64,000 nucleotides of DNA from Candidatus Nanoarchaeia archaeon (GCA_035548435.1 DASZSY010000036.1:1262-65261); one strand, 5' to 3'. Numbered from the stretch's first letter, positions 5,409 through 60,666 are shown. Numbers and translations are program-made. Notes: generated by a model not told the origin, from the sequence alone.

Positions 5409-6872
5409 GTGGCTGCAAAAGATAAACAAAAAATTGATGAGAAGGGTATTACTGTAAAGAAAAACGATGACTTCTCTGAATGGTACACTCAAGTAGTACA
5501 GAAATGTGAACTTTGTGACCTAAGATATAATGTAAAGGGATTTGTTGTATTTCAACCTTGGTCAGTTTTATCAATGGAAAAGATGTACTCATATTTCCAC
5601 AATGTTTTGCAGAGAAAAGGGCACAAGCCTTACTTTTTCCCAACGGTTATACCTGAAGGAAATTTAAAGAAAGAATCAAGCCATATTGCAGGATTCACTC
5701 CTGAAGTATTTTGGGTTACTGGAGCAGGAGAAGACAAGTTTGAAGAGAAACTTGCTTTAAGACCTACAAGTGAAACTGCATTTTATCAAATGTTTGGAAC
5801 ATGGATAAGAAGTTACAAGGATTTGCCTTTCAAGACATATCAAAGGGCAAATGTTTTCAGATATGAAACTAAAGCTACAAGACCATTTTTACGAAGCAGA
5901 GAATTTCATTGGATTGAAGCACATTGTGCACATGCCACCAAGGAAGATGCAATGAAGCAAGTGCACGAAGATATGGAAACAACTCAAGAAATACTTCACG
6001 ATGTATTTGGATTACCTTTCATATTTTTCAAAAGGCCCCAGTGGGACAAGTTTGCAGGAGCAGAAAATACTTTTGCAGCTGATGTTTTGAACCCTGATGG
6101 AAGAGTAGTACAGCAGCCGTCAACTCATATACTTAAACAAGATTTTGCTAAAGCTTTCAATGTAACATTTACTGATAAGGATTCAGAGCAAAAGCATGTA
6201 TGGATTACTTGTTACGGTCCTGCAATATCAAGAATATTTGCAAGTATAGTTATAGTTCATGGAGATGATAAGGGATTGAGATTCCCTTGGGATATTGCTC
6301 CAGTTCAAATTGCAATAGTTCCAATTGTTGATGATTCTAAGGTAATTAAGAAAGCAGAGGAACTTAAGAAAAAACTTTCTCAAAAATACTCTGTAGAGTT
6401 AGATGTTAGCGAGAAAAGTGCTGGAGAAAAATTCAATTATTGGGAGATGAAGGGAACTCCACTAAGAATAGATATTGGACTCAAAGATTTAGAAAAGAAG
6501 CAGATTACACTATTTAGAAGAGATTTAAACAAAAAAGAATCTGTGTCTGAGAAAGACTTTGAAGAATATGTAGAGAAAATTGCAAAAGAGTTTACTCATA
6601 ATTTGATAAAGGAAGCAGATAAGGTATTTGATAATAGAATTAAAACTGTAAAGTCATTTTCAGATCTTAAGAAAGCAATAGAAGAAGGGAACATTGCACG
6701 TTGTGCATTTTGCTCTGATGAGATGTCTGGCGCTAAATGCGGAGAGAAAGTTGAGAAAGAAGTTGGAGCTACTGTTAGGGGAACCAAGCTTGAGACAGAG
6801 AAAGCTAGCGGAGAATGTGTTGTTTGCGGAAAGAAAGCCAGTACAATAGTGTATATTGCAAGGCAATACTAA
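5409..6872 (+). CDS. proS: prolyl-tRNA synthetase, archaeal/eukaryotic type (GTG start)
   Basis: Class II ProRS motifs; C-terminal zinc-binding domain ending in a conserved terminal Tyr (IARQY). Confidence 0.9.
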   Translation: MAAKDKQKIDEKGITVKKNDDFSEWYTQVVQKCELCDLRYNVKGFVVFQPWSVLSMEKMYSYFHNVLQRKGHKPYFFPTVIPEGNLKKESSHIAGFTPEVFWVTGAGEDKFEEKLALRPTSETAFYQMFGTWIRSYKDLPFKTYQRANVFRYETKATRPFLRSREFHWIEAHCAHATKEDAMKQVHEDMETTQEILHDVFGLPFIFFKRPQWDKFAGAENTFAADVLNPDGRVVQQPSTHILKQDFAKAFNVTFTDKDSEQKHVWITCYGPAISRIFASIVIVHGDDKGLRFPWDIAPVQIAIVPIVDDSKVIKKAEELKKKLSQKYSVELDVSEKSAGEKFNYWEMKGTPLRIDIGLKDLEKKQITLFRRDLNKKESVSEKDFEEYVEKIAKEFTHNLIKEADKVFDNRIKTVKSFSDLKKAIEEGNIARCAFCSDEMSGAKCGEKVEKEVGATVRGTKLETEKASGECVVCGKKASTIVYIARQY

Positions 6873-6877
6873 AAACA

Positions 6878-7408
6878 ATGACTTATACTTTTTCAAGTGA
6901 TTTGGAGGATTGTTCCAGAAAAGATTTCGATATTACTTCTAAAATGTCTGAAGATTTTTTTGGAATGACTACTGACTCTGAGCAGTTTCAGGCATCTGAG
7001 GAGAATAAAGACTTTTTATTTAAACATTTGAAAAATTTTGTTAATATAATCAGATTCAATAAAGAAGTTATAGGATATTCTTTTATTATTCCCTCTAATA
7101 AGAAACTAATGTCTTTGTTTTTGAAAGGTAAAATAACTGAGAGTGAATTATTTGATAGAGTCAAATCAGAAAAAATAAATGAAAATAATTTTGATTGCCT
7201 TTATCTTTGTTCGGCTATTATTAAAGAAGAACATAGAGGCAAGGGCTTGTCTATTGAAGGATTCAAAAAACTAATTGTTAACCTGATAAAAATTAGGGGG
7301 AATGTTAAACCAGACTTATTCTTTTGGGAGTATTCTAAAGAAGGAAGTATTGTCGCTAAAAAAATTTCAGAACATTTCGGTTTTAATTTATTTAAGAGCA
7401 ACAATTAG
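6878..7408 (+). CDS. hypothetical protein, possibly a GNAT-type acetyltransferase
   Basis: An ATG at 6878 avoids overlap with proS; EEHRGKGLSIEGFKKLI resembles GNAT motif A. Confidence 0.4.
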   Translation: MTYTFSSDLEDCSRKDFDITSKMSEDFFGMTTDSEQFQASEENKDFLFKHLKNFVNIIRFNKEVIGYSFIIPSNKKLMSLFLKGKITESELFDRVKSEKINENNFDCLYLCSAIIKEEHRGKGLSIEGFKKLIVNLIKIRGNVKPDLFFWEYSKEGSIVAKKISEHFGFNLFKSNN

Positions 7409-7442
7409 GAACTTTTTAATATGCTTATATTTAGTATCTTAT

Positions 7443-8711
7443 ATGGTAGAAATTGATTTTAAGGCAGGAGATAGAGTTAAATTAAGACTTGTAACAGAAG
7501 AAGTTGAAGGGCAGTATGTTGAAAGTTCTGATGCACAAATTGTTTTGCTTAAACTAGAATCAGGTTATAATATTGGTATAAAAAAGGAAAATATTCTTTC
7601 TTCAAGAAAATTACCTGATAAAGAAGAAAAAATTCAAGAGCCAAGACAACAAAGACAAAGTAAAAATCTCCCCAAAATAGCAATAGTTGTTACAGGAGGA
7701 ACTATAGCTAGTAAAGTTTCTTACAAGACTGGAGGAGTAGAGCCTATAGAGAATCCGCAAGACTTCCTTGATCTTTATCCTGAAGTTGAAGAGATTGCAG
7801 AAATAAAAAAGCTTGAAATGCCATTTAGAATGTTATCTGAAAATATGGACTCTGAACACTGGATAAATATTGCCCAGACCATAAAACCCTTGCTTGAGGA
7901 CAGTGAAATACAAGGAGTAATACTTACACATGGTACGGACACACTGCACTACACTGCTGCAGCTTTGAGTTTCTTTTTAGGAAGACTAAACAAACCTGTT
8001 GTTTTGACTTACAGTCAAAAAAGCATCGATAGGGCGAGTAGCGACGCTAAGTTAAACTTAATTTCAGCTGTGAAAATGGCCTTGAGTGATTGTGCAGAAG
8101 TAATGCTTGTTGGACACGGTACAACAAATGATGATTTTTGTTATGCACTACGTGGAACAAAAGTAAAAAAAATGCACAGTTCAAAGAGAGCAGCATTTTT
8201 ACCTGTAAATACAGAGCCACTAGCGAAGATTTCCAAAGATAAAATAGAATTCTTGCAAAAATATAATCCTCGAAGTGATAAAAAAGTTGAAGTTGACACT
8301 TCTTTTACAGATAAAGTAGCTTTGCTCAAGTTTTATCCAGGACAAGATCCTAGCATTCTTGATTATTATGCCTTAAGTTACAAGGGAATTGTAATTGAAG
8401 GAACTGGACTTGGACATGTTGCTGCTTCTGGAGCAAATAAGAGTTGGCTGGCTGCACTAAAGAAGCACATAAGAAATGGACTTGTTGTTTGTATGACAAG
8501 TCAAACAGTTTTTGGAAGAGTTGATCCTTATATTTATTCAGCAGGAAGAGAAATACTTGATGCAGGAGTGATTTATCTTGAAGATATGCTTTCAGAAACT
8601 GCTTTTGTTAAATTAGGGTTTGTACTAGGCCACGCAGGTTGGAAAGTTAAGGCAAAGGAAAAGATGCTACAGAATATGGCCTACGAGCTTAATCAAGTTC
8701 ATTCTAGTTAG
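7443..8711 (+). CDS. gatD: Glu-tRNA(Gln) amidotransferase subunit D (GatD), asparaginase-like
   Basis: IAIVVTGGTIASK, LTHGTDT and EGTGLGH asparaginase-family motifs; about 420 aa from the in-frame ATG at 7443. Confidence 0.85.
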   Translation: MVEIDFKAGDRVKLRLVTEEVEGQYVESSDAQIVLLKLESGYNIGIKKENILSSRKLPDKEEKIQEPRQQRQSKNLPKIAIVVTGGTIASKVSYKTGGVEPIENPQDFLDLYPEVEEIAEIKKLEMPFRMLSENMDSEHWINIAQTIKPLLEDSEIQGVILTHGTDTLHYTAAALSFFLGRLNKPVVLTYSQKSIDRASSDAKLNLISAVKMALSDCAEVMLVGHGTTNDDFCYALRGTKVKKMHSSKRAAFLPVNTEPLAKISKDKIEFLQKYNPRSDKKVEVDTSFTDKVALLKFYPGQDPSILDYYALSYKGIVIEGTGLGHVAASGANKSWLAALKKHIRNGLVVCMTSQTVFGRVDPYIYSAGREILDAGVIYLEDMLSETAFVKLGFVLGHAGWKVKAKEKMLQNMAYELNQVHSS

Positions 8712-8715
8712 TATA

Positions 8716-8734
8716 GTAACTTTTAAGGAGTTAC
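8716..8734 (+). promoter_or_regulatory. palindromic operator-like site GTAACT-N7-AGTTAC, immediately upstream of TATA (TTTAAATA at 8745-8752) of the 8774 gene
   Basis: GTAACTTTTAAGGAGTTAC, a perfect 6-bp inverted repeat; a near-identical site precedes the next gene. Confidence 0.5.
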
Positions 8735-8773
8735 AAAACAAATATTTAAATAGTGGACAAAATATTCTTACAT

Positions 8774-9514
8774 ATGAGATTTAGTCATCTTGACGCAGCA
8801 ATTCCTGAAGGAAGAGAAGAAGATTTCTTTTCATTGTTTGGTAGACTACAAGAACCAACAAAATCTAATTTTGAGTTAGTTTTAGATCTTGGCGCTTATA
8901 TGAATGGTACACCTTTCAATGATAGATATGCTGTTACTGGGAGCTATGCTATTTTGTCTCATTTGATGAAACTTCACTCTCCAGAAATTGCTTCAACTTG
9001 GAAAGGTTTCAGTAATCCTACAATTGTTGGAAATGGACAAGTTCTTGGAGCACTACGCGCAGGATATCATACTAAGGGTGGACCTCAAAACAGAACTGAT
9101 ATGGTTCCTGTTTTTGATATGCTATTAAAGCTTGAAGGAAAAGATGAAAGATTAACTTTTGTTTACAATGAAGTTAGAAAGAATCCTGGAAGTGTTGAAA
9201 CAAACGAACACTTCGGAGTTCCATTGAAGGTAAATTCTCCTGAATCTTTACTGGAGCATAGACTTGGAAGACCTATGACAAGCCAGGGAAACATAGGAGA
9301 CACTTTGACTTTAGTTCATATAATGGAACAAAGAGGGTATTCTCCCGACAGCGTTGCAGAATATGCTATTGCGAATAAACAAGCAGATGAGCTTGCAAAG
9401 AGAATTAAGACAGGATATGACAAATTTGGAAGAGATAGATTTGGAGTATTTCCAAGCGATAAGTTTGTAGCCACATTACTAAAAAGACTTCACAAAGTAC
9501 GCCCAGTAGCATAA
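8774..9514 (+). CDS. hypothetical protein, first gene of the atypical cassette
   Basis: Start placed at the ATG 22 nt downstream of the TATA box, because the upstream GTG at 8753 would overlap the TATA; GC and codon usage (CGT, CCG, GGT-rich) deviate from neighbours; no recognisable domain. Confidence 0.45.
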   Translation: MRFSHLDAAIPEGREEDFFSLFGRLQEPTKSNFELVLDLGAYMNGTPFNDRYAVTGSYAILSHLMKLHSPEIASTWKGFSNPTIVGNGQVLGALRAGYHTKGGPQNRTDMVPVFDMLLKLEGKDERLTFVYNEVRKNPGSVETNEHFGVPLKVNSPESLLEHRLGRPMTSQGNIGDTLTLVHIMEQRGYSPDSVAEYAIANKQADELAKRIKTGYDKFGRDRFGVFPSDKFVATLLKRLHKVRPVA

Positions 9515-9533
9515 TTCTAAAGGGTTATTAGTG

Positions 9534-9552
9534 TAACTATGCAGGAGTTACA
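9534..9552 (+). promoter_or_regulatory. palindromic operator-like site GTAACT-N7-AGTTAC upstream of TATA (TTTAAAAG at about 9562-9570) of the Fic-like gene
   Basis: GTAACTATGCAGGAGTTAC followed by CAAA, same architecture and spacing as 8716-8734. Confidence 0.5.
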
Positions 9553-9591
9553 AATAGGAAGGTTTAAAAGGTTATAAGTTTTCAGTGAAAT

Positions 9592-10593
9592 ATGCACATA
9601 ATTGAAGAAAAACTACTACTTGATATAGAATCTGCAAAATCTAGATTGGACAGAAAAAGGTTAGATGATTTTGTTAGGGAGATGTTTAAATGCTTGTCTA
9701 GAGAAACTATGGAAAATGCTACTATTCAAGATGCAGATAATGCTAGAAGAAAGTCAGAAGTTTTCGCAAATTTTGAGATTGCATGGGATTATGGTACCCG
9801 AAACTTCAAAGAACCGGTAGATTTTGCTTATTTAGGCGATGTTGCTGGAAGAGTTGAACCAGGTTTATGTGCTCCAGGACAACACTATGCAAGTTTTCGT
9901 AATGGTTCTGCAACTTGTTTTGCAGGTTATTTACCTCCTGCTGATGAATCTAGAGTCAGAGAACATCTAGCTAGATCTCTTGATGTTTTGGAAAGTCAAG
10001 ATTGGCATCCTATTGAAAAAGCAGTTTTCTTGAATTTTCACATAACAAGAATTCAACCATTCCAAAATGGAAATAAAAGAACTGCAAATATAGTAACAAA
10101 TGCTACTTTAAAAAATAATGATTTTTTCCCAATTTCTATAAGTCAAAAGAACAAATCTCGTTATCAAGGATACTTGGCAGGTGCACTTAAAGACTTTGAA
10201 AACATGGGCGCAACTGTAGACGATCCTCTCCAACCTTATAAGTTTCCGGGCTTTGGTCAAAGACAATTTTACGATTTTCTTGCTAGAATAGAACTGTCTG
10301 AATTAAAGTGCGCAGAGGATAAATTATCAGGTTTATCTCATTACACTTTATCTTTCAATAATGCTCCAATAAATACTTTGTATGGAGTAAAGCATCATGT
10401 TAGAAATTGGCTTCAAGGACATAACATGTTACATCAGGTTAGATTAGATGTTGCTAGAAAGGAAATTACCGTTGCTGGAGATATTCCTCTTCATTCTTTA
10501 GAAATTGCAGTGGGAAAAATAAAAGGAATTGGTAAATATGAGATTAAGCCGTATAAACCTGCGAATGGTTCTTCAGGTCCCTTTAGTGTATAA
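9592..10593 (+). CDS. Fic/Doc-fold protein with a degenerate active-site motif (QPFQNGNKRTAN instead of HPFx[DE]GNGRxxR)
   Basis: The motif region is encoded at about 10038-10090; the NGNKR core resembles Doc-type HxFx(D/N)(A/G)NKR, but the canonical catalytic His position is Gln. Confidence 0.55.
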   Translation: MHIIEEKLLLDIESAKSRLDRKRLDDFVREMFKCLSRETMENATIQDADNARRKSEVFANFEIAWDYGTRNFKEPVDFAYLGDVAGRVEPGLCAPGQHYASFRNGSATCFAGYLPPADESRVREHLARSLDVLESQDWHPIEKAVFLNFHITRIQPFQNGNKRTANIVTNATLKNNDFFPISISQKNKSRYQGYLAGALKDFENMGATVDDPLQPYKFPGFGQRQFYDFLARIELSELKCAEDKLSGLSHYTLSFNNAPINTLYGVKHHVRNWLQGHNMLHQVRLDVARKEITVAGDIPLHSLEIAVGKIKGIGKYEIKPYKPANGSSGPFSV

Positions 10594-10594
10594 A

Positions 10595-11197
10595 ATGACA
10601 ACTAAAAAATGTAAGGGGCACAATTTTCTCGATGGGTATTATTCTACACAGAGGGGCTTAGCAGATTATTCAAGAGTTCATCAATTGGATTTTATTAGAC
10701 TTATAGAAGAAGCTAAATTGCAAGAAGGCACAGTAGTTGATTTGGGATGTGGTAATGCAAATTTTTTGGCTGATTTAAAGAAACTATTCCCAAATATGAA
10801 AGTTTATGGAGTTGACAAAGTACAGTATGAATCCAGACTTTCCGAGGATGAATTAATACAAGCAGATATCTCTAGAGGCGTTAAATGTCTAGATAGTGAA
10901 ATTGCAGACCTCGTTGTTAGCACTACTTTAGTGCAATGGTTGCCTGCAGACTCGGTGGACCCTTTTTATGTTGAAGTAAATCGTTTAATGAAAAAAGAAG
11001 GAAGAGGAATAGTTTTTCCTTTAGCTTCTAAAGAAGTATCTGAAGAAAGGGGAAGGTATTTTGTTAACGGATTAGAGTTTGAGAGACCAGTAAATATTAG
11101 AAAGATTAAGTTACCTGAAACTTTAGATGGTAAACTAGCTTCAGCATATCAGGTTTTATTTGGAGATTTTAGCGGCTTTCTAGACCTACATAATTAG
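10595..11197 (+). CDS. class I SAM-dependent methyltransferase
   Basis: VVDLGCGNANFLADL glycine-rich motif I; start at the ATG 1 nt after the Fic-like stop. Confidence 0.6.
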   Translation: MTTKKCKGHNFLDGYYSTQRGLADYSRVHQLDFIRLIEEAKLQEGTVVDLGCGNANFLADLKKLFPNMKVYGVDKVQYESRLSEDELIQADISRGVKCLDSEIADLVVSTTLVQWLPADSVDPFYVEVNRLMKKEGRGIVFPLASKEVSEERGRYFVNGLEFERPVNIRKIKLPETLDGKLASAYQVLFGDFSGFLDLHN

Positions 11198-11444
11198 CTC
11201 TATTGAAAATATCGTTTATTTTTTCTTCACTGAAGTTGTAGGGATTTAATTTCAATAGGTGTTTTATTTCAGAATCACTAGGTTTTAATTCAGGTTCCAT
11301 CCAATAAAATTCTCTCATATCTATTCCTTTTCTTTGAAATCCTTCTAATAGTGCACTTATTTCAGAATCATTCTCCCTATGTTTTAAGTAAAATGTTATA
11401 AAATCTAAGGTAAACTGTTCTGTTGGTTTTCTTAACAGAGACAT
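11169..11444 (-). CDS. hypothetical small protein (91 aa), convergent with and slightly overlapping the methyltransferase 3' end
   Basis: ORF only; no recognisable motif. Confidence 0.3.
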   Translation of the reverse strand: MSLLRKPTEQFTLDFITFYLKHRENDSEISALLEGFQRKGIDMREFYWMEPELKPSDSEIKHLLKLNPYNFSEEKINDIFNRANYVGLESR

Positions 11445-11534
11445 AAGGTTATATGGTGCCCAACTATATATTCTTTGTTGTGTTTTATTTTAAATTACCG
11501 CAACCTTTAATACCTCTAGCTTGTATTTTTTTGT

Positions 11535-12983
11535 ATGGACTATAGTAAGATAGGACTTAAAGCTGGAATTGAAATACATCAGCAGTTGGAAACAAGTGAA
11601 AAGCTTTTTTCTCATGCTCCTAGTTACTTAAGAAATGAAAAAGCAGATTATATTGTGCAAAGAAAACTACACAAAGTAGCTGGAGAACAGGGACAGGTTG
11701 ACGCAGCTGTTAAACATGAGGCCGAGCAAGACAGAGAATTTCATTATGAAGGATATAATGACACAGTTTCTCTTGTGGAACTAGACGAAGAGCCACCATA
11801 TATGGTAAATCAAGAAGCTTTGGAAGAATGTTTGAAAGTTGCACTGCTTTTGAATTGTGAAATTTATCAAAACACGCAAATAATGAGAAAGACGGTTATT
11901 GACGGAAGCAACACTTCTGGCTTTCAGAGAACTGTTCTAATAGGCCACGATGGATACGTTGAAACAAGTTTTGGTAAGGTAAGAATAGATACTGTTGTTT
12001 TAGAAGAAGACAGCGCTAGAATAATAAGCAAAGATGAAAGAAAGGCAGTTTACAGACTTGATAGACTTGGAATTCCATTAATTGAAATTGCTACTGCTCC
12101 TGATATGAACACTCCAGAGCAAATAAAAGAAACTGCATTAAAGATAGGAGAAATACTAAGAGCCTGTAATGTTAAAAGAGGACTTGGAACAATAAGACAG
12201 GACGTTAACGTTTCTATAAAAGGACATGACAGAGTAGAAATAAAGGGATTTCAAGATCCTAAGATGATGATTGAAACTGTAAATAAGGAAATCTTAAGAC
12301 AACAAAAAGATATTTCCGAAGGAAAAGTTAAAGGAGAAGTGCGTGGAGCATTGGAAACAGGAGAAACTGAATTTTTAAGACCTATGCCTGGAAAAGCAAG
12401 AATGTATCCTGAGACAGATTTACCTTTACTTTATGTTTCTCTTGATTTAATAAATAAATTAAAGAAAAATCTTCCTAAATTAAAGCAGGAAATAAAAGTT
12501 GAATTAAAGAAGAAAGGTTTGAATGATGAAATGATTAAACTTGTTTTGGAAGATGGAGTTGATGAGTTTGAGACATTACTTAACGTATATGACAAAGATG
12601 CTAATCTTGTTGCTAAAATGATAACTTTATGGAGACAAGAATTTTCAAGCAAAACAAAGAAGAATTTGGATGAAGTAAAACAAATACTAAATGAAAAAAT
12701 ACTGGAAAAAATACTTGAAAACTTAGCTACTGGAAAAATAAGCGATGGAGATGTTAAGACAATAATGCTTAAGGTCTTGGAAGGAAAGAATGTAGAAGAT
12801 GCTTTGAAAGTTGAAAAAAGCGATGATAATACACTTGAACATGGAATAAGAGAAATTGTTAAAGAAAAACCTGGACTAAGAGCAAATGCTTATATGGGGC
12901 TTGTAATTGCAAAGTTTGGAGCAAGCGTTGATAAAAGAAAAGCAATGGAAATCTTAAACAAAGTTGTGGGGGACGGGAAATGA
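11535..12983 (+). CDS. gatE: Glu-tRNA(Gln) amidotransferase subunit E (GatE), compact form
   Basis: GIEIHQQL N-terminus and RPMPGKARMYPETDLP motif (GatE-specific versus GatB EDYRY); only 482 aa, so it lacks most of the canonical GatE insertion. Confidence 0.7.
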   Translation: MDYSKIGLKAGIEIHQQLETSEKLFSHAPSYLRNEKADYIVQRKLHKVAGEQGQVDAAVKHEAEQDREFHYEGYNDTVSLVELDEEPPYMVNQEALEECLKVALLLNCEIYQNTQIMRKTVIDGSNTSGFQRTVLIGHDGYVETSFGKVRIDTVVLEEDSARIISKDERKAVYRLDRLGIPLIEIATAPDMNTPEQIKETALKIGEILRACNVKRGLGTIRQDVNVSIKGHDRVEIKGFQDPKMMIETVNKEILRQQKDISEGKVKGEVRGALETGETEFLRPMPGKARMYPETDLPLLYVSLDLINKLKKNLPKLKQEIKVELKKKGLNDEMIKLVLEDGVDEFETLLNVYDKDANLVAKMITLWRQEFSSKTKKNLDEVKQILNEKILEKILENLATGKISDGDVKTIMLKVLEGKNVEDALKVEKSDDNTLEHGIREIVKEKPGLRANAYMGLVIAKFGASVDKRKAMEILNKVVGDGK

Positions 12984-13234
12984 ACAAAACTTTAGTGGCA
13001 ATTGGAATGCTTGCACTTTTAGCATTTGGAGCAGGATTTTATGCTAAGGGAATTACGGGCAACGTTATTTTTGGGCAAAATGAGCAGAGTTATACTAAAG
13101 CCATATGCCATGAAAGCCAATGTTTAGATGTTTATGTTCAGTGTAATAATGGAAATCCTATAATTACTCCTATAACTCCATATACTCAAGTTAATACCAC
13201 TAAATTTAATATCACAAATGAGATAAAATGTTAG
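12980..13234 (+). CDS. small secreted protein (signal peptide plus about 60 aa)
   Basis: MNKTLVAIGMLALLAFGAGFYAKG signal-like N-terminus; start overlaps the gatE stop. Confidence 0.4.
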   Translation: MNKTLVAIGMLALLAFGAGFYAKGITGNVIFGQNEQSYTKAICHESQCLDVYVQCNNGNPIITPITPYTQVNTTKFNITNEIKC

Positions 13235-13242
13235 GATAGGAT

Positions 13243-13304
13243 AAATGAAAACTATTTTCATTTATGAAAATCATTTTCAATAATGTTTAAATACTTGAAA
13301 GTAT
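13243..13304 (+). promoter_or_regulatory. array of three palindromes flanking the TATA box (TTTAAATA at 13286-13293) of the 13320 gene
   Basis: AAATGAAAA-CTA-TTTTCATTT at 13243-13263; TGAAAAT-C-ATTTTCA at 13265-13279; ATACTT-GA-AAGTAT at 13291-13304; repeated TGAAAA/TTTTCA half-sites. Confidence 0.5.
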
Positions 13305-13319
13305 TGGATTTTATACTCT

Positions 13320-13919
13320 ATGGGCCCTAATTGGTGTTCTGCAGCGGATGCGAAAATATTTTATTATAGGTGCAAGTATGAAGAAGATTATCTAGGAGTT
13401 GAATGGGTACATGGAGCAGATACTTTACCATTTGTTTTAAATCCTGAAGAAGTTCTTTCTAAAGTAGATTATGATTTTCATAATATAAGTAGAGAAGACT
13501 TGGCAGTTAGAGCTTCTTTTATTTTAATGCCTGATAGTGTTAGACTGAGAGTAAGAGAAGGACACGCTCTTCTTCCTCCTCCAGAAAATTTATCTGAAGA
13601 AGAGAAAGTTAGGCTTGCAAGTAGAGAACTTCTAAGATATAATATTGAGCAAAGAGATTGGATGCTACGTGGAAAGAAGTTTCTTGCTGAAAGAGAGCAT
13701 CACGATCCTGATGTAAATGAGTTTGTTAGAGATTACTTTGCAAATGGTAGCCCTGTTTTCTATAAGATAAGAGATGTAATGTTGCATCCTGAAAGATATG
13801 TTAGAAGAGATGTTCTTCCACTATCTGAAGTGTTGCATGGCGGAATGGGTATTCAAGAAAGACTTTATGGGTCTCCAAGATTGCCTGATTTAGAAGCTCA
13901 GCCACCCGTCGCAGCATAG
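13320..13919 (+). CDS. hypothetical protein (199 aa, Arg/Pro-rich), apparently tightly regulated
   Basis: ORF with TATA 27 nt upstream and operator-like palindromes; no recognisable domain. Confidence 0.5.
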   Translation: MGPNWCSAADAKIFYYRCKYEEDYLGVEWVHGADTLPFVLNPEEVLSKVDYDFHNISREDLAVRASFILMPDSVRLRVREGHALLPPPENLSEEEKVRLASRELLRYNIEQRDWMLRGKKFLAEREHHDPDVNEFVRDYFANGSPVFYKIRDVMLHPERYVRRDVLPLSEVLHGGMGIQERLYGSPRLPDLEAQPPVAA

Positions 13920-13949
13920 ATTTTTAACTTTCTTTTTACTAATGAGGAG

Positions 13950-14801
13950 ATGAAGATATTAGCTATTGGAGATTTTCATGGAAATTTTCCTAAATCTATA
14001 AAAGAAATAATAAAAAAAGAAAAAATTGATTTTGTCTTATCTAACGGAGATTTTTTTCCTTTTTGGTACAGAAAGCTTTGGTTTAAGCATTGTTATGCAA
14101 AAAATGTTAATCTTTGGGAAGTTATTGGTAAGAACAAATACAAAAATTTTATTTTGAAAGATTTGAAAATGGGGGAGAAAGCAATTAAGGCACTTAATGA
14201 GCTGCCTGTTCCAGTTTATACTGTTGTAGGTAATCTTGATTATGCGAGATTGAATGATAGTTTAGATTTAGATGAATATTATGAAGAACATGGAGGAAAA
14301 ATTGCACATTGGGATTGGGGTGAACAGGACTTTTTTAGCAAGATAATAAAGAAATACAAGAATATTAGGAGAATTGATTACAAATCTGCAAGATTTGGAA
14401 ATTTTGTTTTGATTGGAGCCTATGGGGGAACTAACCCTGGTGAGCCTGAAAGTGAAACTTTTAAGAAATATCAAAAAAAATTGGCAAACATTTTTTTGAA
14501 GAATCGCGGGAAAAAAATAATTTTTGTTTCACATAATGTTCCTAATAATACTAAACTTGACAAGATTGGGAAACATGCACATAAACTTGTAAGAGGAAAG
14601 CATTATGGGTCCATACTTGTGAAAAAAGCAATTATAAAATTCAAACCTTTAGTTCATATTGGAGGGCATATTCATGAAGGTCGTGGAACTCAAAAGGTTG
14701 GAAAGACTGTCTGTGTGAATCCGGGAGCTGTTCATGAAGGGCAAGGGTCAATTGTTGAAATTGTTGAGGATAAAGTCAAAGTAAGGATGATTAAAGTTTA
14801 A
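13950..14801 (+). CDS. calcineurin-like metallophosphoesterase
   Basis: GDFHGN, GNLDY and GGHIHEG metallophosphatase motifs; GGAG ribosome-binding site upstream. Confidence 0.7.
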   Translation: MKILAIGDFHGNFPKSIKEIIKKEKIDFVLSNGDFFPFWYRKLWFKHCYAKNVNLWEVIGKNKYKNFILKDLKMGEKAIKALNELPVPVYTVVGNLDYARLNDSLDLDEYYEEHGGKIAHWDWGEQDFFSKIIKKYKNIRRIDYKSARFGNFVLIGAYGGTNPGEPESETFKKYQKKLANIFLKNRGKKIIFVSHNVPNNTKLDKIGKHAHKLVRGKHYGSILVKKAIIKFKPLVHIGGHIHEGRGTQKVGKTVCVNPGAVHEGQGSIVEIVEDKVKVRMIKV

Positions 14802-14851
14802 TTTTTGTAGTAAATCTAAAGCTTTATTAAACTTGAAACATAAAGAAGAAT

Positions 14852-15088
14852 ATGTTCGACGAAATACAAAAGGATGCTATAAGAGTTCAGGCGCATGCAA
14901 TACTGCAGAGATTTAGTGAAAAACTTGCAGACGTTAAAACTGCAGATGTTGTTGAGAAGCCATCAAGCAGTGGAATGAGGCATAACGAAATAATTAAAAC
15001 TGCAGATTCTGACTTTAGAGAAATGATTTTTAAGAATGCAATAAAGAAAGATGAAAGTTTCATATATGGAGAGACAAAGAAATGGTAG
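14852..15088 (+). CDS. gatC: putative Asp/Glu-tRNA amidotransferase subunit C (GatC), short form
   Basis: ILQRFSEKLADVKTADVVEKP and MRHNE...FKNAIKKDESFI resemble the conserved GatC core (ILxFxExLNEVDTxxVEP ... MREDE ... NAP); lies 2 genes upstream of gatA. Confidence 0.35.
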   Translation: MFDEIQKDAIRVQAHAILQRFSEKLADVKTADVVEKPSSSGMRHNEIIKTADSDFREMIFKNAIKKDESFIYGETKKW

Positions 15089-15639
15089 TAAAAAAGAAGC
15101 AAGCTAAGGAAGTTAAGAAATCTAAGCCTTCAAAGGTAGTTAAACCTTCAAAGGTCTTGACAAAGAAAGCCCAGAAGGAAGAGGAAGAAGAGCATAGCGG
15201 AGGAGCCAGCTTAGATGATGCTTTCGGTGATGATGAAGATGTTTCCTATGCAGAAGCAAAGCCTAAAAAAGAAAAGAAAAAGAAAGTGGATGAAGATGAA
15301 GAGCTTGATGATGAAGTTGAAGATGAACTTGATGAAATACAACATGCTGAAAATTCTGTTGAGAGAGGAGAAATAGAAATCAATCAATCAAAGCCAGTTT
15401 CTAAAATAAAGAAGGGCGATAAGATAAAAATTGACGGAGTCGAGTATGAAGTTGATGCTCATTACGTTCTTATCGACCATGGAACAACAAAGGAAATGAC
15501 TATTGAAATTTTTGATCCTAAGAGAGATAAAGATTTCCAACTTAGATATTTTGACGATCAACTTGAAGCAACTCTTGACTTGTATGAACTACAAGAAATT
15601 CTTTATATCAAGAGGGCTTTCAAGAAAGTAGAATGGTAA
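15082..15639 (+). CDS. Lys/Glu-rich low-complexity protein with a conserved-looking C-terminal domain, embedded between gatC-like and gatA
   Basis: Overlaps both neighbours by 7 nt (operon-like); KKEKKKK / DEDEELDDEVEDELDE tracts; C-terminal roughly 90 aa not low-complexity. Confidence 0.45.
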   Translation: MVVKKKQAKEVKKSKPSKVVKPSKVLTKKAQKEEEEEHSGGASLDDAFGDDEDVSYAEAKPKKEKKKKVDEDEELDDEVEDELDEIQHAENSVERGEIEINQSKPVSKIKKGDKIKIDGVEYEVDAHYVLIDHGTTKEMTIEIFDPKRDKDFQLRYFDDQLEATLDLYELQEILYIKRAFKKVEW

Positions 15640-16943
15640 TCGGACCAATTGAGCAAAAGGCAGCTACTCTTATGCAGAAAATAAGAAATGAGAATAAGAA
15701 GCTGAACATTCTTTTACAAGTTAACGATAAGCTGATTGAACAGGCTGCAGCACTGGATGCTAAAAAGGCAAAGGGCAAGCTTGCTGGAAAGTTTATTGTT
15801 GTTAAAAGTAATATAATGGTTAAAGGAATGATTGCAAATTGTGCTTCTAAGACTGTTGAAAACTTTGTTTGTCCTTATGATGCTACAGTAATTGAAAAAA
15901 TAAAAGCAGAAGACGGACTTATTGTTGGAATGGCGAACATGGATGAGTTTGCATGTGGAGGAAGCGGAGAGAACAGTGCATACGGAGCTACAGAAAACCC
16001 TGCCGCCTTAGGATATATTCCTGGAGGTTCAAGTTCTGGAAGCGTTGCAGCTGTTGCAGCTGGATTCTGTGATATTTCTCTTGGAAGCGATACCGGGGGA
16101 AGTATAAGAAATCCTGCAAGTCATTGTGGAGTTGTTGGACTAAAACCAAGCTATGGATGCGTTAGTAGATATGGACTGGTTGATTTGGCCATGTCTTTAG
16201 ACCAGATAGGGCCAGTTTCAAAGAACGTAGGAGATGTTTTTCTTTTACTTGATATAATAAAAGGAAAGGACCCAAGGGATCCTACAACTCTTGATTTTGT
16301 TTCTCATTCTTCTCCTTTGAATAATGCAAGAATAGGAATTTTGAGGATAAACGGAGTTGACTCTAAAATACAGAAGATGATTGATGTGCAAGTTAAAAAC
16401 TTACATAAAATATATGGATGGCAAGTTAAGGAAGTTAACATTGATGCAATAGACTTGGCAGTTGAGGCATATTATCCATTAGTTTATTCTGAATGTTTTT
16501 CTTCAACAAGAAAATTTGATGGAAGAAGATATGGACTAAATATAAACGAATCTGCTGGGCCAGAATTACTTCGAAGAATGATTGGAGGAAGTGAAATAAC
16601 TGAGGCTGAACATGCTGGAGCTTACTATCAGAAGGCACTAGAAGTTAAAAGATACATAAAAAAACAGTTTGAAGAGGTTTTCAAGAGCTTTGATGCAATT
16701 ATCTTACCTACTTGCCCTGGACTTCCTTGGAAAATAGGAGAAAAAATGAAAGTTGAAGAAGTTTATGCATATGATGCCTGTACAATTCCTGCAAACTTGG
16801 CTGGAATTTGCGCCATATCTATTCCTCTAGGAACCTTAAACAAAATTCCTGTAGGTATGCAGATATTCTGTAAATCTGGAGATGAAACAAAACTTCGCAC
16901 AATATCCGAATTGACCTCTAAATTAGCACCATTATCTTTATAA
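15633..16943 (+). CDS. gatA: Asp/Glu-tRNA amidotransferase subunit A (GatA), amidase-signature family
   Basis: GGSSSGSVAAVAAGFCDISLGSDTGGSIRNPASHCGVVGLKPSYG amidase signature; GatA-like N-terminus. Confidence 0.85.
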   Translation: MVIGPIEQKAATLMQKIRNENKKLNILLQVNDKLIEQAAALDAKKAKGKLAGKFIVVKSNIMVKGMIANCASKTVENFVCPYDATVIEKIKAEDGLIVGMANMDEFACGGSGENSAYGATENPAALGYIPGGSSSGSVAAVAAGFCDISLGSDTGGSIRNPASHCGVVGLKPSYGCVSRYGLVDLAMSLDQIGPVSKNVGDVFLLLDIIKGKDPRDPTTLDFVSHSSPLNNARIGILRINGVDSKIQKMIDVQVKNLHKIYGWQVKEVNIDAIDLAVEAYYPLVYSECFSSTRKFDGRRYGLNINESAGPELLRRMIGGSEITEAEHAGAYYQKALEVKRYIKKQFEEVFKSFDAIILPTCPGLPWKIGEKMKVEEVYAYDACTIPANLAGICAISIPLGTLNKIPVGMQIFCKSGDETKLRTISELTSKLAPLSL

Positions 16944-17637: not shown

Positions 17638-18662
17638 GTATAGAATTTGTTATTGGAGATAGGAAAAGATTTTCTAACTTTATTTCAGGCATAGGAAAGG
17701 GAAGAATGGCCTTGATAAGTCATACTGACTGTGACGGAATTGCTTCTGCAAGGGTTGTGGACATAGCTTTGCAGCCAGATGAGGTTTTCTTTGTGGATTA
17801 TAAGGACTTAAACCAAGATTTTCTAAATAAAATTACTAAAGAGAACTTTGAAAGCGTTGTAATAACTGATTTGTTCTTTAAGAGCAAAGATGACTTGAAA
17901 GAATTAAGTAAAAAGTCAAAAGTTCTTATTATTGACCATCATAGCCCGGATGTTGACTTAAATTCAGAGAATATAGTTCATTTGAACTCCCAAGGGCATT
18001 GCGCAGCCATGATTGCGTATGAACTTTTCTCTAAAGTTACAAATTTAAAAGGTCTTGATTGGCTTGTGGCATGTGCATGTGCTGCAGATTGGCTTGTTGT
18101 TAACGACGCCGAGTTTCTAACTGAGGTTTATATGAAATATGGTGATAAATTCGAAATTATCGACGGAGAATTAAGAAAAACAGGACAAATATGGCAATGG
18201 AGTAGTGATATTTCATCTGGACTTGCTTATTTTAGAGGATTAAATTTGAAAGAAGGATACAAAGAGATTGGAAATAATCCCGGAGACTTTGGAAATTTTG
18301 CGAGGGCAGTGAAATTAGTTAATCAAGAAATAGATGAATTTAGAAAAAAATTTCAAAAAGAAAAAAAAGAAATTCCAAATGGATATTTTTTTGAATTAAA
18401 TCCAAAATATGAAATAAAAGGAATGCTAATAAGTGAATTATCATCACTAGAAAAAAATAAAACTTTAATTTTTGCAACTCCTTCAAAAGATAAAATTTTA
18501 TTGTCTTCCCGTCGACAAGATGGACTTGTGGACTTGAATAAATTTATGTTTGAAGCAACGGAGGGTATTGGAAGTGGTGGTGGACACAAAAGAGCAGCAG
18601 GTGGTTTTGTTAAAATTGAAAATTATTCTGAATTTAAGAAAAGAATTGGATTGAAAGACTGA
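17634..18662 (+). CDS. DHH/DHHA1 phosphoesterase (RecJ/NrnA-like)
   Basis: DCDGIAS (DHH motif I), IIDHH (motif III), C-terminal GGGHKRAAG (DHHA1). Confidence 0.7.
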   Translation: MSIEFVIGDRKRFSNFISGIGKGRMALISHTDCDGIASARVVDIALQPDEVFFVDYKDLNQDFLNKITKENFESVVITDLFFKSKDDLKELSKKSKVLIIDHHSPDVDLNSENIVHLNSQGHCAAMIAYELFSKVTNLKGLDWLVACACAADWLVVNDAEFLTEVYMKYGDKFEIIDGELRKTGQIWQWSSDISSGLAYFRGLNLKEGYKEIGNNPGDFGNFARAVKLVNQEIDEFRKKFQKEKKEIPNGYFFELNPKYEIKGMLISELSSLEKNKTLIFATPSKDKILLSSRRQDGLVDLNKFMFEATEGIGSGGGHKRAAGGFVKIENYSEFKKRIGLKD

Positions 18663-18767
18663 AAACTTTTCATAAAAATGTGAAAAAATATTGTATTTTT
18701 TCCTATAATCAAATATTTAAACTCTTATTATATTAATATTTCAACAAGGTGAAAGGAGGTTATACAA

Positions 18768-32321: not shown

Positions 32322-33059
32322 CTATTGGGACCTTGCCATTTTCCATAAAAATTCAAAGTAAACTTTAAAGGAGTCAGCTATTTTCTTATTTTTAATCATG
32401 AAAACGAACGGCTTTTCTTCCCACATAAATATGTATACATACTCATCGAAAATATCCATTGCTATTGGAGAAACGTATCCCTTAGGCATGTATTTTATTT
32501 CAGCGTTATTTGACTTGATTGTTTCTTTTTGAAATTCTTTAGAAGAAATATCTGCAATTATCTTTAGTTTTTGTTTTTTCTCACAAGATCTTATGTTCAT
32601 ATTAGATAGGAATGTTTGTAAGTTTTCTGAATTGTACTGCTGGTGTGAAAAACCTATTATTTTAATTTCCCCCTTGTTTGGGCAGTCATCAATTATCTTC
32701 TTGAAAGCCGTTTTGAATCCTTCATATCCTTCATATATTGCAGTTATTGTGTTATTTTTGTCTGTGGACTGGATATCTTTTAATTGAGGTAATAATTTTT
32801 CTATTTTTGTAATCTTTTCTGTTTCTATTTCTTTTAATTTCTGAGGGTTGGAAGCACTAAAGTGTTTGCCGTCTTTTTGTATATTATATTTAACTAGACC
32901 CTTTATTGTAAGGCTATTAAGAGTTTCATATACTCTAGAATTTGCTATTTTTGTTTCTTTTATTATACTTCCTGTGGTGGTTTCTCCATTTTTTAATAAA
33001 AATAGATAGATTTTGCTTTCGTTTTTTGTTAGCCCCAATGATTCTAGTTCTTTTTCCAT
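32322..33059 (-). CDS. TrmB-family transcriptional regulator
   Basis: N-terminal TrmB-type winged helix-turn-helix (LGLTKNESKIYLFLLKNGETTTGSI...SRVYETLNSL). Confidence 0.7.
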   Translation of the reverse strand: MEKELESLGLTKNESKIYLFLLKNGETTTGSIIKETKIANSRVYETLNSLTIKGLVKYNIQKDGKHFSASNPQKLKEIETEKITKIEKLLPQLKDIQSTDKNNTITAIYEGYEGFKTAFKKIIDDCPNKGEIKIIGFSHQQYNSENLQTFLSNMNIRSCEKKQKLKIIADISSKEFQKETIKSNNAEIKYMPKGYVSPIAMDIFDEYVYIFMWEEKPFVFMIKNKKIADSFKVYFEFLWKMARSQ

Positions 33060-33143
33060 ATCTATTAGAGATTTTTCTTCTATTTATAGTTTCTCCTTAA
33101 CGGGAGAAATATAAGATAAATATGCCTTTTCTGTTACCACTGT

Positions 33144-47347: not shown

Positions 47348-47441
47348 TGGCCCCGACGGGATTTGAACCCGCGACACCTGGATTTCGCCAACCATGAAGG
47401 TTTAAGAGTCCAGTACTCTGACCGGGCTGAGCTACGAGGCC
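47348..47441 (-). tRNA. tRNA-Lys (anticodon CTT) with a roughly 19-nt intron at the canonical 37/38 position
   Basis: Reverse complement folds: acceptor GGCCUCG/CGGGGCC, D-stem GCUC/GAGU, anticodon stem CUGGA/UCCAG with the loop interrupted by an intron (AACCUUCAUGGUUGGCGAA), T-stem GCGGG/CCCGU; ends GGGGCCA. Confidence 0.7.
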
Positions 47442-48395: not shown

Positions 48396-48472
48396 GTTAT
48401 TTAAAAGTTCCTATTGTTCTTTTTTTGAACTTTTAAGCCAAGAAAAGCTTTGCTTTTCTATGTTTAAACCTT
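48396..48472 (-). promoter_or_regulatory. conserved ~70-nt element, copy 2, carrying TATA TTTTAAATA about 30 nt upstream of tfs
   Basis: Roughly 85% identical to 25876-25943 outside a variable spacer; hairpin arms AAAAGTTC/GAACTTTT. Confidence 0.5.
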
Positions 48473-48519
48473 TAGTCTATATAGACTAAATGGTTATCAG
48501 AATTAGAATAATTCCGAGG

Positions 48520-48550
48520 AGTTCCTATTGTTCGTTTTTGAAGCTTTTAT
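48520..48550 (-). repeat. partial third copy (core about 30 nt) of the conserved element, overlapping the stop codon of the signal peptidase gene
   Basis: AGTTCCTATTGTTCgTTTTTGAAgCTTTTA versus AGTTCCTATTGTTCtTTTTTTGAACTTTTA at 48405-48434. Confidence 0.45.
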
Positions 48551-56061: not shown

Positions 56062-56715
56062 TTAGGCAGCTTCCCTGAGTCCGTATCTTGAAAGATGCAT
56101 ATCTAAAACATCTGCAGGATTGGCTCCCCTTTCTTTTTCAAAGTCTATTAAAAGAGATGAAACAAGCTTTTTGTTTTTCTCAAGTCCAGCATTTCTGAGT
56201 GCTTTGCCAGTTGGAGTATAGAATTTTTGCTTATCTAGGAATCCTAAAACTTGAGAGTACCATCTTTGAAGATCAGTCAGGCCATATTCCTGTCTAACGG
56301 CTTCAGTTGATTTCCAAAATTCATTTCCTCCAATATTCCATATATCTGAGTCACATATTATTTTTTCTAGTAGTGTTGAAGGGTTTGTTGGTAGTTTTGT
56401 GGACATTACTAGAAGATCATTTACAGCTATTTCTTCATTTTTATAACCTATTTCTTTAAGATATTCACTAGCAAGGGCAGCGCTTCTTTCCTCATTATCA
56501 GTTCTTCCAGGGATTACAATTAGGTCGTGAGTGTATCCTCCAGTCTCTAGTAAAAATATTTCCTTGGATGTGCATCCTTCCATATATCCTAAAGCAGTGG
56601 CGTTGGCAACTACATATAATCCATGTTCAAAGTTGTGGTATGGAAGTTTAGGCATGATTTTTCTTGAGAAAGCTCTAACTTGCTCAAGTTTTTCTCTGTC
56701 TTTTTGGTTTATCAT
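56062..56715 (-). CDS. HD-domain phosphohydrolase
   Basis: HNFEHG ... HD metal-binding motifs. Confidence 0.6.
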   Translation of the reverse strand: MINQKDREKLEQVRAFSRKIMPKLPYHNFEHGLYVVANATALGYMEGCTSKEIFLLETGGYTHDLIVIPGRTDNEERSAALASEYLKEIGYKNEEIAVNDLLVMSTKLPTNPSTLLEKIICDSDIWNIGGNEFWKSTEAVRQEYGLTDLQRWYSQVLGFLDKQKFYTPTGKALRNAGLEKNKKLVSSLLIDFEKERGANPADVLDMHLSRYGLREAA

Positions 56716-56809: not shown

Positions 56810-57841
56810 ATGAGATTCTTACCCCATTTAGAACCTGAAGGAGTTTCTTTGAAACAAAAAATTGATTTAAAGGATAGAAAAATACTTTATCATTTAAGTG
56901 AGAATGCAAGAATGCCTGCTTCCTCTATTGCAAAATTGACGGGACTATCAAGAGACAGCGTTTTATATAGAATGAAAAAATTAGAGGAAAAGAAAATAAT
57001 TAACTGTACTAGAACTTTAGTTGATGTTTCAAAATTGGGCTATGAAAACTTCCATCTTTTTGTGACCTTGAATAACCCTGAGAAACACATTGAAGATAAA
57101 ATTGTTAAAGAATTGTCTGGGCATGAATCTGTCAGAGTAATATTAAAATTCCATGGGAGCTATGACTTCGAGATAGGATTCATTGCAAAAGATTTGCATG
57201 AATGTGATAAAATAATGCAGGATTTAGTAAATATTATGGGTTCAAATTTAAGGTATCATGATTTATTTATAATTACTAAAACTTTGAGAGCAGGCGCTTT
57301 TCCTAATAGTTTTTTTGATAAATCAAATATTAAAAGAGAGCTGAGAAAAAACCAATTTTCCAAGGAAATTTCTAAATTGGATAAAAAAGATTTAGATTTA
57401 TTGAATTCATTAAGAGAAGATGCTCGCGTTCCTTTAATTGATATAGCAAAAAAATTGAAAATCTCTCCAGATAGCGTTTCCTATAGGCTTAGAGCTCTGG
57501 AGAAGTCTGGAGTAATCATCTCCTATTCTCCTGTGATTAATTACTCTGCTTTAGGCTACAGGGTTCATGCATTAATGTTTTCTATAAAACAATTTAATTC
57601 TGATAGGGAAAATATGATAAAGCGATTTATGGAATCTAATCCTCATGTCCTTTGGGCTGTTAAAACCCTTGGAAGATATGATGTGCTGCTTTATCTTTGT
57701 ACGGAAAGCGAAGAAGATTTTCATTCTTTTATATCTGAATTGAGAAAATTATTTCCAGAACAATTATTGCGTTATGATTCTCTACATGCATTTGCAGAAT
57801 ACAAGTATTTGTATGCTCCAGATGTTATTTTTAAAAATTAG
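56810..57841 (+). CDS. tandem (fused) Lrp/AsnC-family transcriptional regulator
   Basis: Two AsnC-type helix-turn-helix segments (DRKILYHLSENARMPASSIAKLTGLSRDSVLYRM; DLDLLNSLREDARVPLIDIAKKLKISPDSVSYRL), each followed by a RAM-like domain. Confidence 0.6.
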   Translation: MRFLPHLEPEGVSLKQKIDLKDRKILYHLSENARMPASSIAKLTGLSRDSVLYRMKKLEEKKIINCTRTLVDVSKLGYENFHLFVTLNNPEKHIEDKIVKELSGHESVRVILKFHGSYDFEIGFIAKDLHECDKIMQDLVNIMGSNLRYHDLFIITKTLRAGAFPNSFFDKSNIKRELRKNQFSKEISKLDKKDLDLLNSLREDARVPLIDIAKKLKISPDSVSYRLRALEKSGVIISYSPVINYSALGYRVHALMFSIKQFNSDRENMIKRFMESNPHVLWAVKTLGRYDVLLYLCTESEEDFHSFISELRKLFPEQLLRYDSLHAFAEYKYLYAPDVIFKN

Positions 57842-60321: not shown

Positions 60322-60666
60322 ATGGCAAAGGGAAGTGCAGTTATGCATCATATAAGTGTTAGGAAAAGAATACATGAAAGAAATGAAGTTTATCCTCATC
60401 CTCAGATATTTAAGAGAATTATAGACAAAACGGTTTATTTTATAGGATTATTTGCTGTTTTAATTAGTATACCTCAGCTTTGGCAAATATGGCATTATCA
60501 AGATGCTTCTGGAGTTTCTGTTATAACCTGGGGATCTTATCTATTTATAGAGTTAATTTGGATAATGTATGGATTTTTACATAGAATTAAACCTATAATT
60601 TTTGCTTATTTTGCTATTTTTGTGGTTGACTTGTTTATAGTCATTGGAACCTTAATTTATAGTTAA
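60322..60666 (+). CDS. small 3-transmembrane membrane protein, possibly SemiSWEET/PQ-loop
   Basis: PQ motif in the first helix (ISIPQLWQIW), three hydrophobic helices in about 100 aa. Confidence 0.4.
   Translation: MAKGSAVMHHISVRKRIHERNEVYPHPQIFKRIIDKTVYFIGLFAVLISIPQLWQIWHYQDASGVSVITWGSYLFIELIWIMYGFLHRIKPIIFAYFAIFVVDLFIVIGTLIYS

Follow-up and report, generated by a model that had tools for sequence, protein, structure and literature searches.

Layout of the array and its promoter

The DNA analysed here, called the window, is a 64-kb stretch of a contig from a metagenome-assembled genome of a Candidatus Nanoarchaeia archaeon (DPANN), with a GC content of about 33–37%. It matches contig CAZZNA010000201.1 of GCA_964655315.1. 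The element under study is an array of palindromes in the 85-nt intergenic region that precedes gene X (13320–13919, plus strand, ATG at 13320), which encodes an orphan protein of 199 aa. X belongs to a run of genes on the same strand. Its order is ProRS, GatD, a 246-aa protein, Fic, a methyltransferase, GatE, an 84-aa protein, X, a metallophosphoesterase, a GatC-like protein of 78 aa, a 185-aa protein and GatA, followed at the downstream end by an MBL (metallo-β-lactamase) hydrolase, a DHH protein and FtsZ. The 84-aa gene ends with a stop codon at 13232–13234.

Three inverted repeats (IRs) were found in the region by sequence read and a repeat finder. IR1 (ATAAATGAAAA-CTA-TTTTCATTTAT, 13241–13265) has perfect arms of 11 nt around the core TGAAAA-CTA-TTTTCA (13246–13260) and begins 6 nt past the stop codon of the 84-aa gene. 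IR2 (TGAAAAT-C-ATTTTCA, 13265–13279) abuts the transcription factor B recognition element (BRE), and its final base lies 6 nt upstream of the TATA box. IR3 (AATACTT-GA-AAGTATT, 13290–13305) has arms of 7 nt and overlaps the 3' end of the TATA box together with the stretch up to the inferred transcription start. The half-site TGAAAA/TTTTCA occurs four times, starting at 13246, 13255, 13265 and 13274, with alternating orientation and steps of 9, 10 and 9 bp. The symmetry reaches past the A-tracts (ATAAATG.../...CATTTAT). IR1 and IR2 form two tandem 19-nt units that are 79% identical according to the repeat finder, and where the two units join they create an inverse palindrome, ATTTTCAT-TT-ATGAAAAT (13254–13271), which is a by-product of their juxtaposition. 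A sequence-only reading of this DNA had already described the three repeats, the TATA box, the ATG and the fourfold half-site, and all of them were confirmed at their positions. The arms of IR2 were also as it had given them; those of IR1 and IR3 proved longer (11 instead of 9 nt and 7 instead of 6 nt).

The 70 nt upstream of every called gene in the window were aligned as a promoter survey. At most genes a TTTAAATA-like box is located about 29–34 nt before the ATG without a Shine-Dalgarno sequence, the arrangement found with leaderless or near-leaderless transcripts of archaea. The promoter of X has the same layout. Its TATA box (TTTAAATA, 13286–13293, plus strand) begins 34 nt ahead of the ATG, so transcription would start near 13316. 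Relative to this position, IR1 extends from −75 to −51, IR2 from about −51 to −37, and IR3 from −26 to −11. The purine/A-rich segment AATAATG (13279–13285, plus strand) resembles the pre-TATA segments of other window genes and presumably acts as the BRE. The core promoter of X, consisting of this purine-rich BRE and TTTAAATA, resembles those of housekeeping genes. The array lies on a genuine archaeal BRE/TATA promoter.

The array exceeds chance expectation

Of the 85 intergenic nt, 55 lie in palindromes with arms of at least 6 nt and spacers of at most 4 nt. Shuffling the same region 20,000 times with dinucleotides preserved gave a coverage of 5.8 ± 8.8 nt, and 55 nt was attained only once. 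The palindrome density that the sequence-only reading had pointed out thus stood up to shuffling. Among all 85-nt segments of the 64 kb, the intergenic region of X scored highest, followed by 48440–48524 (54 nt) and 60625–60709 (52 nt), and among the perfect short-spacer inverted repeats of the window IR1 ranks first in length. TGAAAA/TTTTCA hexamers are present in 166 copies, and four of them within 40 nt were found only at X (0.03 expected).

A test that was free of the motif was also performed, in which any identical 6+6 palindrome repeated 12–32 nt apart was searched for, with 300 shuffles of the whole window as the null. Only the X locus carried such a tandem pair, and none of the 300 shuffles contained one. 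The window as a whole is hardly richer in palindromes than its shuffles (179 versus 160 ± 15). The array is real and non-random.

IR2 is the conserved part of the array

The gene order ProRS-GatD-Fic-GatE-(AspRS)-X-metallophosphoesterase-GatC-like-small open reading frame(s)-GatA (5409–16943 in the window) is kept at four related loci, L001, L005, L006 and L008, in which X is 32–82% identical. The array was compared with L001 (X 82% identical), L005 (46%) and the loci at 32–34%. Between the window and L001, the neutral identity at 4-fold sites is 0.575. The intergenic region of X is 80% identical to L001 overall, and this identity is unevenly spread: 47 of the 51 positions in 13255–13305, which comprise the right arm of IR1, IR2, the BRE, the TATA box and IR3, are identical, including all 16 in the stretch 13255–13270.

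Counterparts of IR2 were found in both L001 (TGAAAACTATTTTCA) and L005 (TGATAATAGTTTTCA), each with an unchanged distance to the TATA box, which is itself identical in L001, L005 and L008. When the TATA box and the upstream 26 nt were compared with L005, 22/26 positions were identical, and 9/10 were identical in the 10 nt that precede the box. In the segment 11–26 nt upstream of the TATA box, which covers IR2, the promoter of X matched L005 at 13/16 positions. In contrast, the same segment matched at only 4/16, 1/16 and 5/16 positions in the control promoters of GatD, GatE and the GatC-like gene, respectively. The Fic promoter reached 12/16 and carries an obviously conserved palindrome, GTAAC-N9-GTTAC.

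The arms of the half-sites are kept while the centre varies, being CTA and TCA in the window, CTA in L001 and TAG in L005. In L005 the A-tract is interrupted (TGATAA), with the palindromic register and the distance to the TATA box both kept, and the TG/CA positions that flank the A-tracts are conserved. In L001, TGAAAA of IR1 is changed to TGTGAA without a compensating change in the partner arm. The kept arms, the free centre and the uncompensated arm changes therefore point to a protein site rather than a hairpin. IR2 is under selective constraint in these relatives, as expected of a protein-binding operator. IR2 would be the old constrained site and IR1 a younger tandem copy, and IR3 appears doubtful.

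Downstream of X, a TATA-like box (TTTTTAAC, 13921–13928, plus strand) is predicted 29 nt ahead of the ATG of the metallophosphoesterase gene (13950). A T-rich TATA-like box of this kind follows the stop codon of X directly, at equal distance, in the window, L001, L006 and L008. Because the metallophosphoesterase gene has its own TATA-like box, and hence probably a separate promoter, X is probably monocistronic and the array would control X alone.

A putative operator for a dimeric transcription factor

The array probably serves in cis as the binding region of a sequence-specific, dimeric transcription factor, itself probably a winged-helix protein, on the promoter of a near-leaderless and probably monocistronic gene. 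It is inferred from the DNA that a protein binds and does so cooperatively, and the same goes for the direction of regulation, the transcription start near 13316 and the choice of factor. The functional core would be IR2 (TGAWAA-N3-TTTTCA), which directly abuts the BRE, and IR1 would be a distal, lineage-specific auxiliary copy placed in tandem 19 bp upstream. The four half-sites would lie in successive major grooves every 9–10 bp, where two dimers could bind side by side in a cooperative manner. Repression is slightly favoured, in which a factor on IR2 would occlude TFB and TBP and IR1 would sharpen the response. IR3 might be a second, different operator, at which a second factor would block the recruitment of RNA polymerase, and the evidence for this is weak. 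The slight lean to repression is taken because the core promoter looks housekeeping-strong and IR2 touches the BRE.

Several observations weigh against this reading. IR3 alone is within chance, as a palindrome with arms of at least 7 nt appeared in 12% of the local shuffles; it is 15/16 identical in L001 and is kept only in this close relative. The left arm and centre of IR1 (13241–13254) are at neutral identity in L001, and both IR1 and IR3 are absent from the L005 locus. In the relatives at 32–34% identity, X directly follows AspRS and has a TATA box only, without palindromes. The close relative L001 by itself says little, as promoters in general are 77–94% identical between it and the window, and with such a tiny X family only two relatives are informative. 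With a centre-to-centre spacing of 19 bp (about 1.8 helical turns), the two sites do not face exactly the same side of the helix. The genome-wide search for more sites that the sequence-only reading had proposed was made over the 64 kb, where no further exact TGAAAA-N3-TTTTCA was found beyond the two at X and one-mismatch matches are at chance level, so no regulon is visible within the window. The "triple" array of that reading is consequently reduced to a tandem of IR1 and IR2 that is beyond chance, and the conservation it expected upstream of orthologues was found for IR2 in L001 and L005 and for IR3 in L001 only, not for the left arm of IR1 or at the 32–34% loci.

The same reading had called the sites repressor sites, and this part was not supported, as IR1 and IR2 lie upstream of the BRE/TATA, a position from which characterised regulators of archaea frequently act as activators (PMC4706686, PMC6737238). 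TrmBL1 is an activator on sites upstream of the TATA box and a repressor on downstream ones (PMC4706686). Tar sites upstream of the BRE/TATA also activate, and this placement was described as typical of archaeal activators (PMC6737238). By these position rules, activation is a serious alternative to repression. The same sites would then be an upstream activating sequence, at which a dimer or tetramer bound to IR2 and IR1 recruits TFB/TBP, and the gene would be off without it. As a tentative reading, activation differs from the favoured one solely in the sign of regulation, and it is nearly as likely as repression. Consistently, IR1 and IR2 are located wholly upstream of the BRE/TATA (about −37 to −75 from the inferred start), and the conserved palindrome of the Fic promoter sits at a similar upstream position. 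However, the core promoter is consensus-like, with TTTAAATA and a purine-rich BRE, and shows no obvious need for an activator. IR2 is so near the BRE that a steric clash is as plausible as recruitment, and in distant orthologues this TATA box is used with no site upstream of it.

A purely structural role of the DNA is unlikely. Each half-site is an A4 or T4 tract, successive ones are spaced by roughly one helical turn, and the region is extremely AT-rich. Such phased tracts, repeated every 9–10 bp, might give intrinsic curvature or position or exclude chromatin proteins. However, the symmetry goes beyond the A-tracts to the conserved flanking TG/CA, and the broken A-tract of L005 (TGATAA) left the palindromic register and the TATA distance intact. 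Other promoters in the window do not have such tracts.

It is equally improbable that the palindromes and T-tracts are mainly the 3' end (terminator) of the GatE/84-aa transcript or another RNA structure. Archaeal termination uses oligo-T tracts, and IR1, which starts just behind the 84-aa gene, has the potential to fold into an 11-bp A-U hairpin with T4 tracts after it. However, this A-U-only fold is weak (−13.8 kcal/mol, z = −2.0), the region has no Rfam match, and in L001 the IR1 stem has changed on one side only, without compensation. In addition, the conserved part is the promoter-proximal IR2 rather than the hairpin, and TGAAAA partners are not needed for a terminator. An RNA element or terminator was rejected as the main explanation on the weak fold, the uncompensated stem and the missing Rfam match. 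The T4 tracts could contribute to termination of the upstream transcript as a dual role.

A non-functional origin is very unlikely. The two tandem 19-mers might have arisen by a recent 19-nt slippage duplication of AT-rich promoter-proximal sequence that is palindromic by chance, in line with their 79% identity, with the neutral drift of the left arm of IR1 in L001 and with IR3 being within chance expectation. However, a duplication gives two copies and does not account for each unit being a perfect 6+6 palindrome. IR2 is kept at 13/16 positions in a genome with a 46% identical orthologue while the control promoters there are randomised, and a tandem palindrome pair appeared in none of the 300 window shuffles. 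A replication-origin site (origin recognition box, ORB) or a dif recombination site is presumably disfavoured by the 3-bp spacer and the promoter position, and no Orc1/Cdc6 or Xer gene was present in the Pfam listings of the window, where no test aimed at ORB or dif sites was made.

Comparison with known archaeal operators

As a putative operator, the X array was compared with known archaeal sites. The sites of archaeal Lrp-type regulators (feast/famine regulatory proteins, FFRPs) have the form abcdeWWWedcba, the natural FL11 consensus is TGAAA-WWW-TTTCA, and binding was reported to be lost only when all three centre positions are G:C (PMC2715240). Like the FFRP/FL11 sites of Pyrococcus, the X array consists of palindromes with 5–6-nt arms exactly 3 bp apart (TGAAAA-N3-TTTTCA, present twice), with GAAA/TTTC in the arm, an AT-rich centre and multiple sites per promoter, and an Lrp/AsnC-type protein, a 343-aa tandem fusion, is encoded in the window. 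Unlike in the FL11 consensus, TGAAA and TTTCA are separated by 5 bp here instead of 3, and unlike the WWW centre, each centre has one G:C pair (CTA, TCA, TAG), which is a mild departure. At 19 bp, the centre-to-centre spacing is below that found where DNA wraps around Lrp octamers. The array resembles FFRP/FL11 sites rather than being one of them.

In 2005, Lie, Wood and Leigh (J Biol Chem) reportedly described tandem NrpR operators at the nif promoter of Methanococcus maripaludis, where a primary and an auxiliary site are said to give cooperative repression. NrpR operators have the sequence GGAA-N6-TTCC and are situated around the transcription start, on the downstream side of the TATA box. 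The X array is similar in that two copies of one short palindromic operator stand side by side on an archaeal promoter. It differs in that the tandem sites lie upstream of the BRE/TATA. No NrpR homologue was seen in the window.

In Thermococcales, TrmBL1 sites are TATCAC-N5-GTGATA (PMC4706686) and Tar sites are TGGACA-N8-TGTCCA (PMC6737238). Like the X array, these are palindromes close to the BRE/TATA; they are bound by winged-helix regulators, with activation from upstream positions and repression from downstream ones, and a TrmB-family gene is present in the window. However, the sequence and spacer differ, and the TrmBL1 and Tar motifs define regulons with many sites, whereas only one promoter in 64 kb carries the motif here.

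Another comparison comes from the same genome. A GTAAC(T)-N7-9-(A)GTTAC palindrome is located just upstream of the BRE/TATA at the promoters of the 246-aa gene (8716–8734) and the adjacent Fic gene (9532–9552). The Fic-promoter palindrome is kept, with a free spacer, in L005 (about 1638–1660) and L006 (about 2330–2352), where X is 34–46% identical. From its conservation, the GTAAC palindrome looks like a better-conserved operator than the X array, common to two promoters. Both elements have the same placement upstream of the BRE, with kept arms and a free spacer. Unlike the X array, the GTAAC palindrome has another half-site and spacer, is present in a single copy per promoter at two promoters, and extends to more distant relatives. 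The X array is another example of a well-known type of element, as palindromic factor sites at archaeal promoters are textbook knowledge. A literature search for the exact string TGAAAWWWTTTCA gave no match.

Candidate regulators and other copies of the motif

Three winged-helix proteins are encoded in the window and are candidate regulators: a TrmB-like protein (32322–33059), a tandem double Lrp/AsnC protein of 343 aa (56810–57841) and an ArsR/MarR-like protein (60893–61507). The 343-aa protein consists of two complete Lrp/AsnC units fused together, each with an HTH_AsnC domain and a ligand-binding-like domain, and its best sequence matches in PDB are LrpC and FL11. The DNA-contact residues of FL11 are L24, A34, E35, S36, T37 and H39 (PMC2715240). 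The corresponding positions are A24/S34/R35/D36/S37/L39 in domain 1 and L24/S34/P35/D36/S37/S39 in domain 2. The FL11 contact code was tried as a guide to the specificity of the tandem protein, and because its contact residues differ from those of FL11, an FL11-like specificity is not predicted and no prediction is possible from the code. The 343-aa protein also resembles the architecture of fused NirD-like siroheme decarboxylases (4ch7).

In the divergent promoter region between the TrmB-family and methyltransferase genes, a palindrome TTTCTCC-TTAACG-GGAGAAA was noticed at 33090–33109, which is a candidate autoregulatory site of the TrmB-family protein.

One-mismatch matches to TGAAAA-N3-TTTTCA in the 64 kb are at chance level (5 versus 2.3 expected). 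One of them, TGATAATTATTTTCA (60825–60839), is located in the promoter of the ArsR/MarR-like gene, 24 nt from its TATA box; IR1 is 25 nt from the TATA box of X. The two promoters also share TTAAATACTT. The 68 nt of the ArsR/MarR-like promoter (60816–60883) are 100% identical in relatives whose proteins are 77% and 80% identical. The TGATAATTATTTTCA site overlaps a different palindrome, AAATAAT-N7-ATTATTT, and the motif is absent from about 35 orthologous ArsR/MarR-like promoters in metagenomes (37–61% identity), which share TTAATTAAACAAAAGNTTTAAATA instead. The ArsR/MarR-like gene as the autoregulated cognate factor of the X array is a lead only. TTAATTAAACAAAAGNTTTAAATA itself is a candidate for an unusually conserved extended promoter or autoregulatory site. 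The true start of this 204-aa gene is probably the ATG at 60893 rather than 60884.

The sequence-only reading had also pointed to a TTTTCA-N8-TGAAAA site upstream of ftsZ. This site is present one base off the position it gave (TTTTCA at 18667–18672, TGAAAA at 18681–18686), as part of a cluster TGAAAA-C-TTTTCA-N8-TGAAAA (18660–18686) whose first two hexamers span 18660–18672. About 0.8 clusters of three hexamers of this type are expected by chance in the window. A link to the X array was rejected: the spacings are N1/N8 versus N3/N4, the orientation is different, the cluster is only partly kept in L001, and it is compatible with chance. The two are probably unrelated. Upstream of the TATA box of ftsZ, a palindrome with 9-nt arms (GAAAAAATA-TTG-TATTTTTTC, 18682–18702) was also observed, which is loosely kept in L001. 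ftsZ also differs from most window genes in having a leader, with GGAGG as its Shine-Dalgarno sequence.

The orphan protein X

X has the same sequence as a hypothetical protein from a metagenome-assembled genome of Candidatus Nanoarchaeia (DPANN). As the sequence-only reading had stated, the protein is rich in Arg (9.5%, rank 2 of 69 window proteins) and Pro (7.5%, rank 1 of 69). Lys accounts for 3.5% versus 9.9% in the window proteome, and the protein is acidic with a net charge of −8. Its family is tiny: a word search recovered one homologue at 82% identity, and an exhaustive HMMER search of 1.8 billion representatives added four at 46%, 34%, 32% and 27%. No homologue was found in GTDB species representatives. 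Between X and the closest homologue, the amino-acid identity is 82% and the identity at 4-fold sites is 63%, and therefore X is under purifying selection.

The view that X has no recognisable domain was borne out, with no match in Pfam, NCBIfam, PADLOC or PDB sequences. The structure prediction that it called for agreed with this, as the AlphaFold2 model from a 6-sequence alignment is all-helical with low confidence (predicted local distance difference test score, pLDDT, 57), and a Foldseek search of the model against PDB found no fold match (best E = 1.9).

All six members of the family (24–82% identical to X), including that of the window (13914–13919), end in Ala-Ala, and the 10–15 residues before this end are variable among them. 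An Ala-Ala C-terminus is found in 2 of 74 window proteins. The other protein (56062–56715) was considered as a paralogue of X and is not related to it. Judging from this shared ending, the Ala-Ala of X could be a C-terminal recognition or degradation signal.

X adjoins AspRS/GatE and the phosphoesterase/GatC-like genes at every recovered locus. In the window and L001, the 84-aa open reading frame, which has a hydrophobic N-terminus, stands in the place of AspRS. The GatE of the window is short, with 482 aa, and matches the 630-position NCBIfam model at positions 4–262. A joint reading of these features is highly speculative and has little chance of being right. In it, the array would switch a lineage-restricted module, X being held under tight cooperative transcriptional control by the four-half-site operator within the ProRS-GatD-Fic-GatE-(AspRS)-X-phosphoesterase-GatC-like-GatA cluster. 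X would be short-lived, with Ala-Ala as a degron for Cdc48 or the proteasome, and would modulate tRNA-dependent amidation or aminoacylation in these DPANN archaea.

Other features of the window

The second-densest palindrome region, 48407–48549, lies between the TFS/RPB9 gene and a 186-aa gene and has no Rfam match. Three palindromes there, AGAAAAGC-TTT-GCTTTTCT, TTTAGTCTATATAGACTAAA and GAATTA-GAA-TAATTC, are flanked by two direct repeats of 29 nt (GTTCCTATTGTTCTTTTTTTGAACTTTTA and GTTCCTATTGTTCGTTTTTGAAGCTTTTA) with a distance of about 114 nt between them. ARAGORN gives an ambiguous anticodon for a 94-nt tRNA at 47348–47441, for which the score under the Rfam tRNA model is 55.7 bits; this is probably an archaeal tRNA with an intron.

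Significance

Almost nothing is known experimentally about the regulation of transcription in DPANN archaea. With four perfect half-sites beside a consensus BRE/TATA and three winged-helix candidates within 50 kb, the X promoter is a simple test case. Its target is a rare orphan, and the biological reach of the finding would be small unless X is linked to the surrounding tRNA amidotransferase and synthetase genes.

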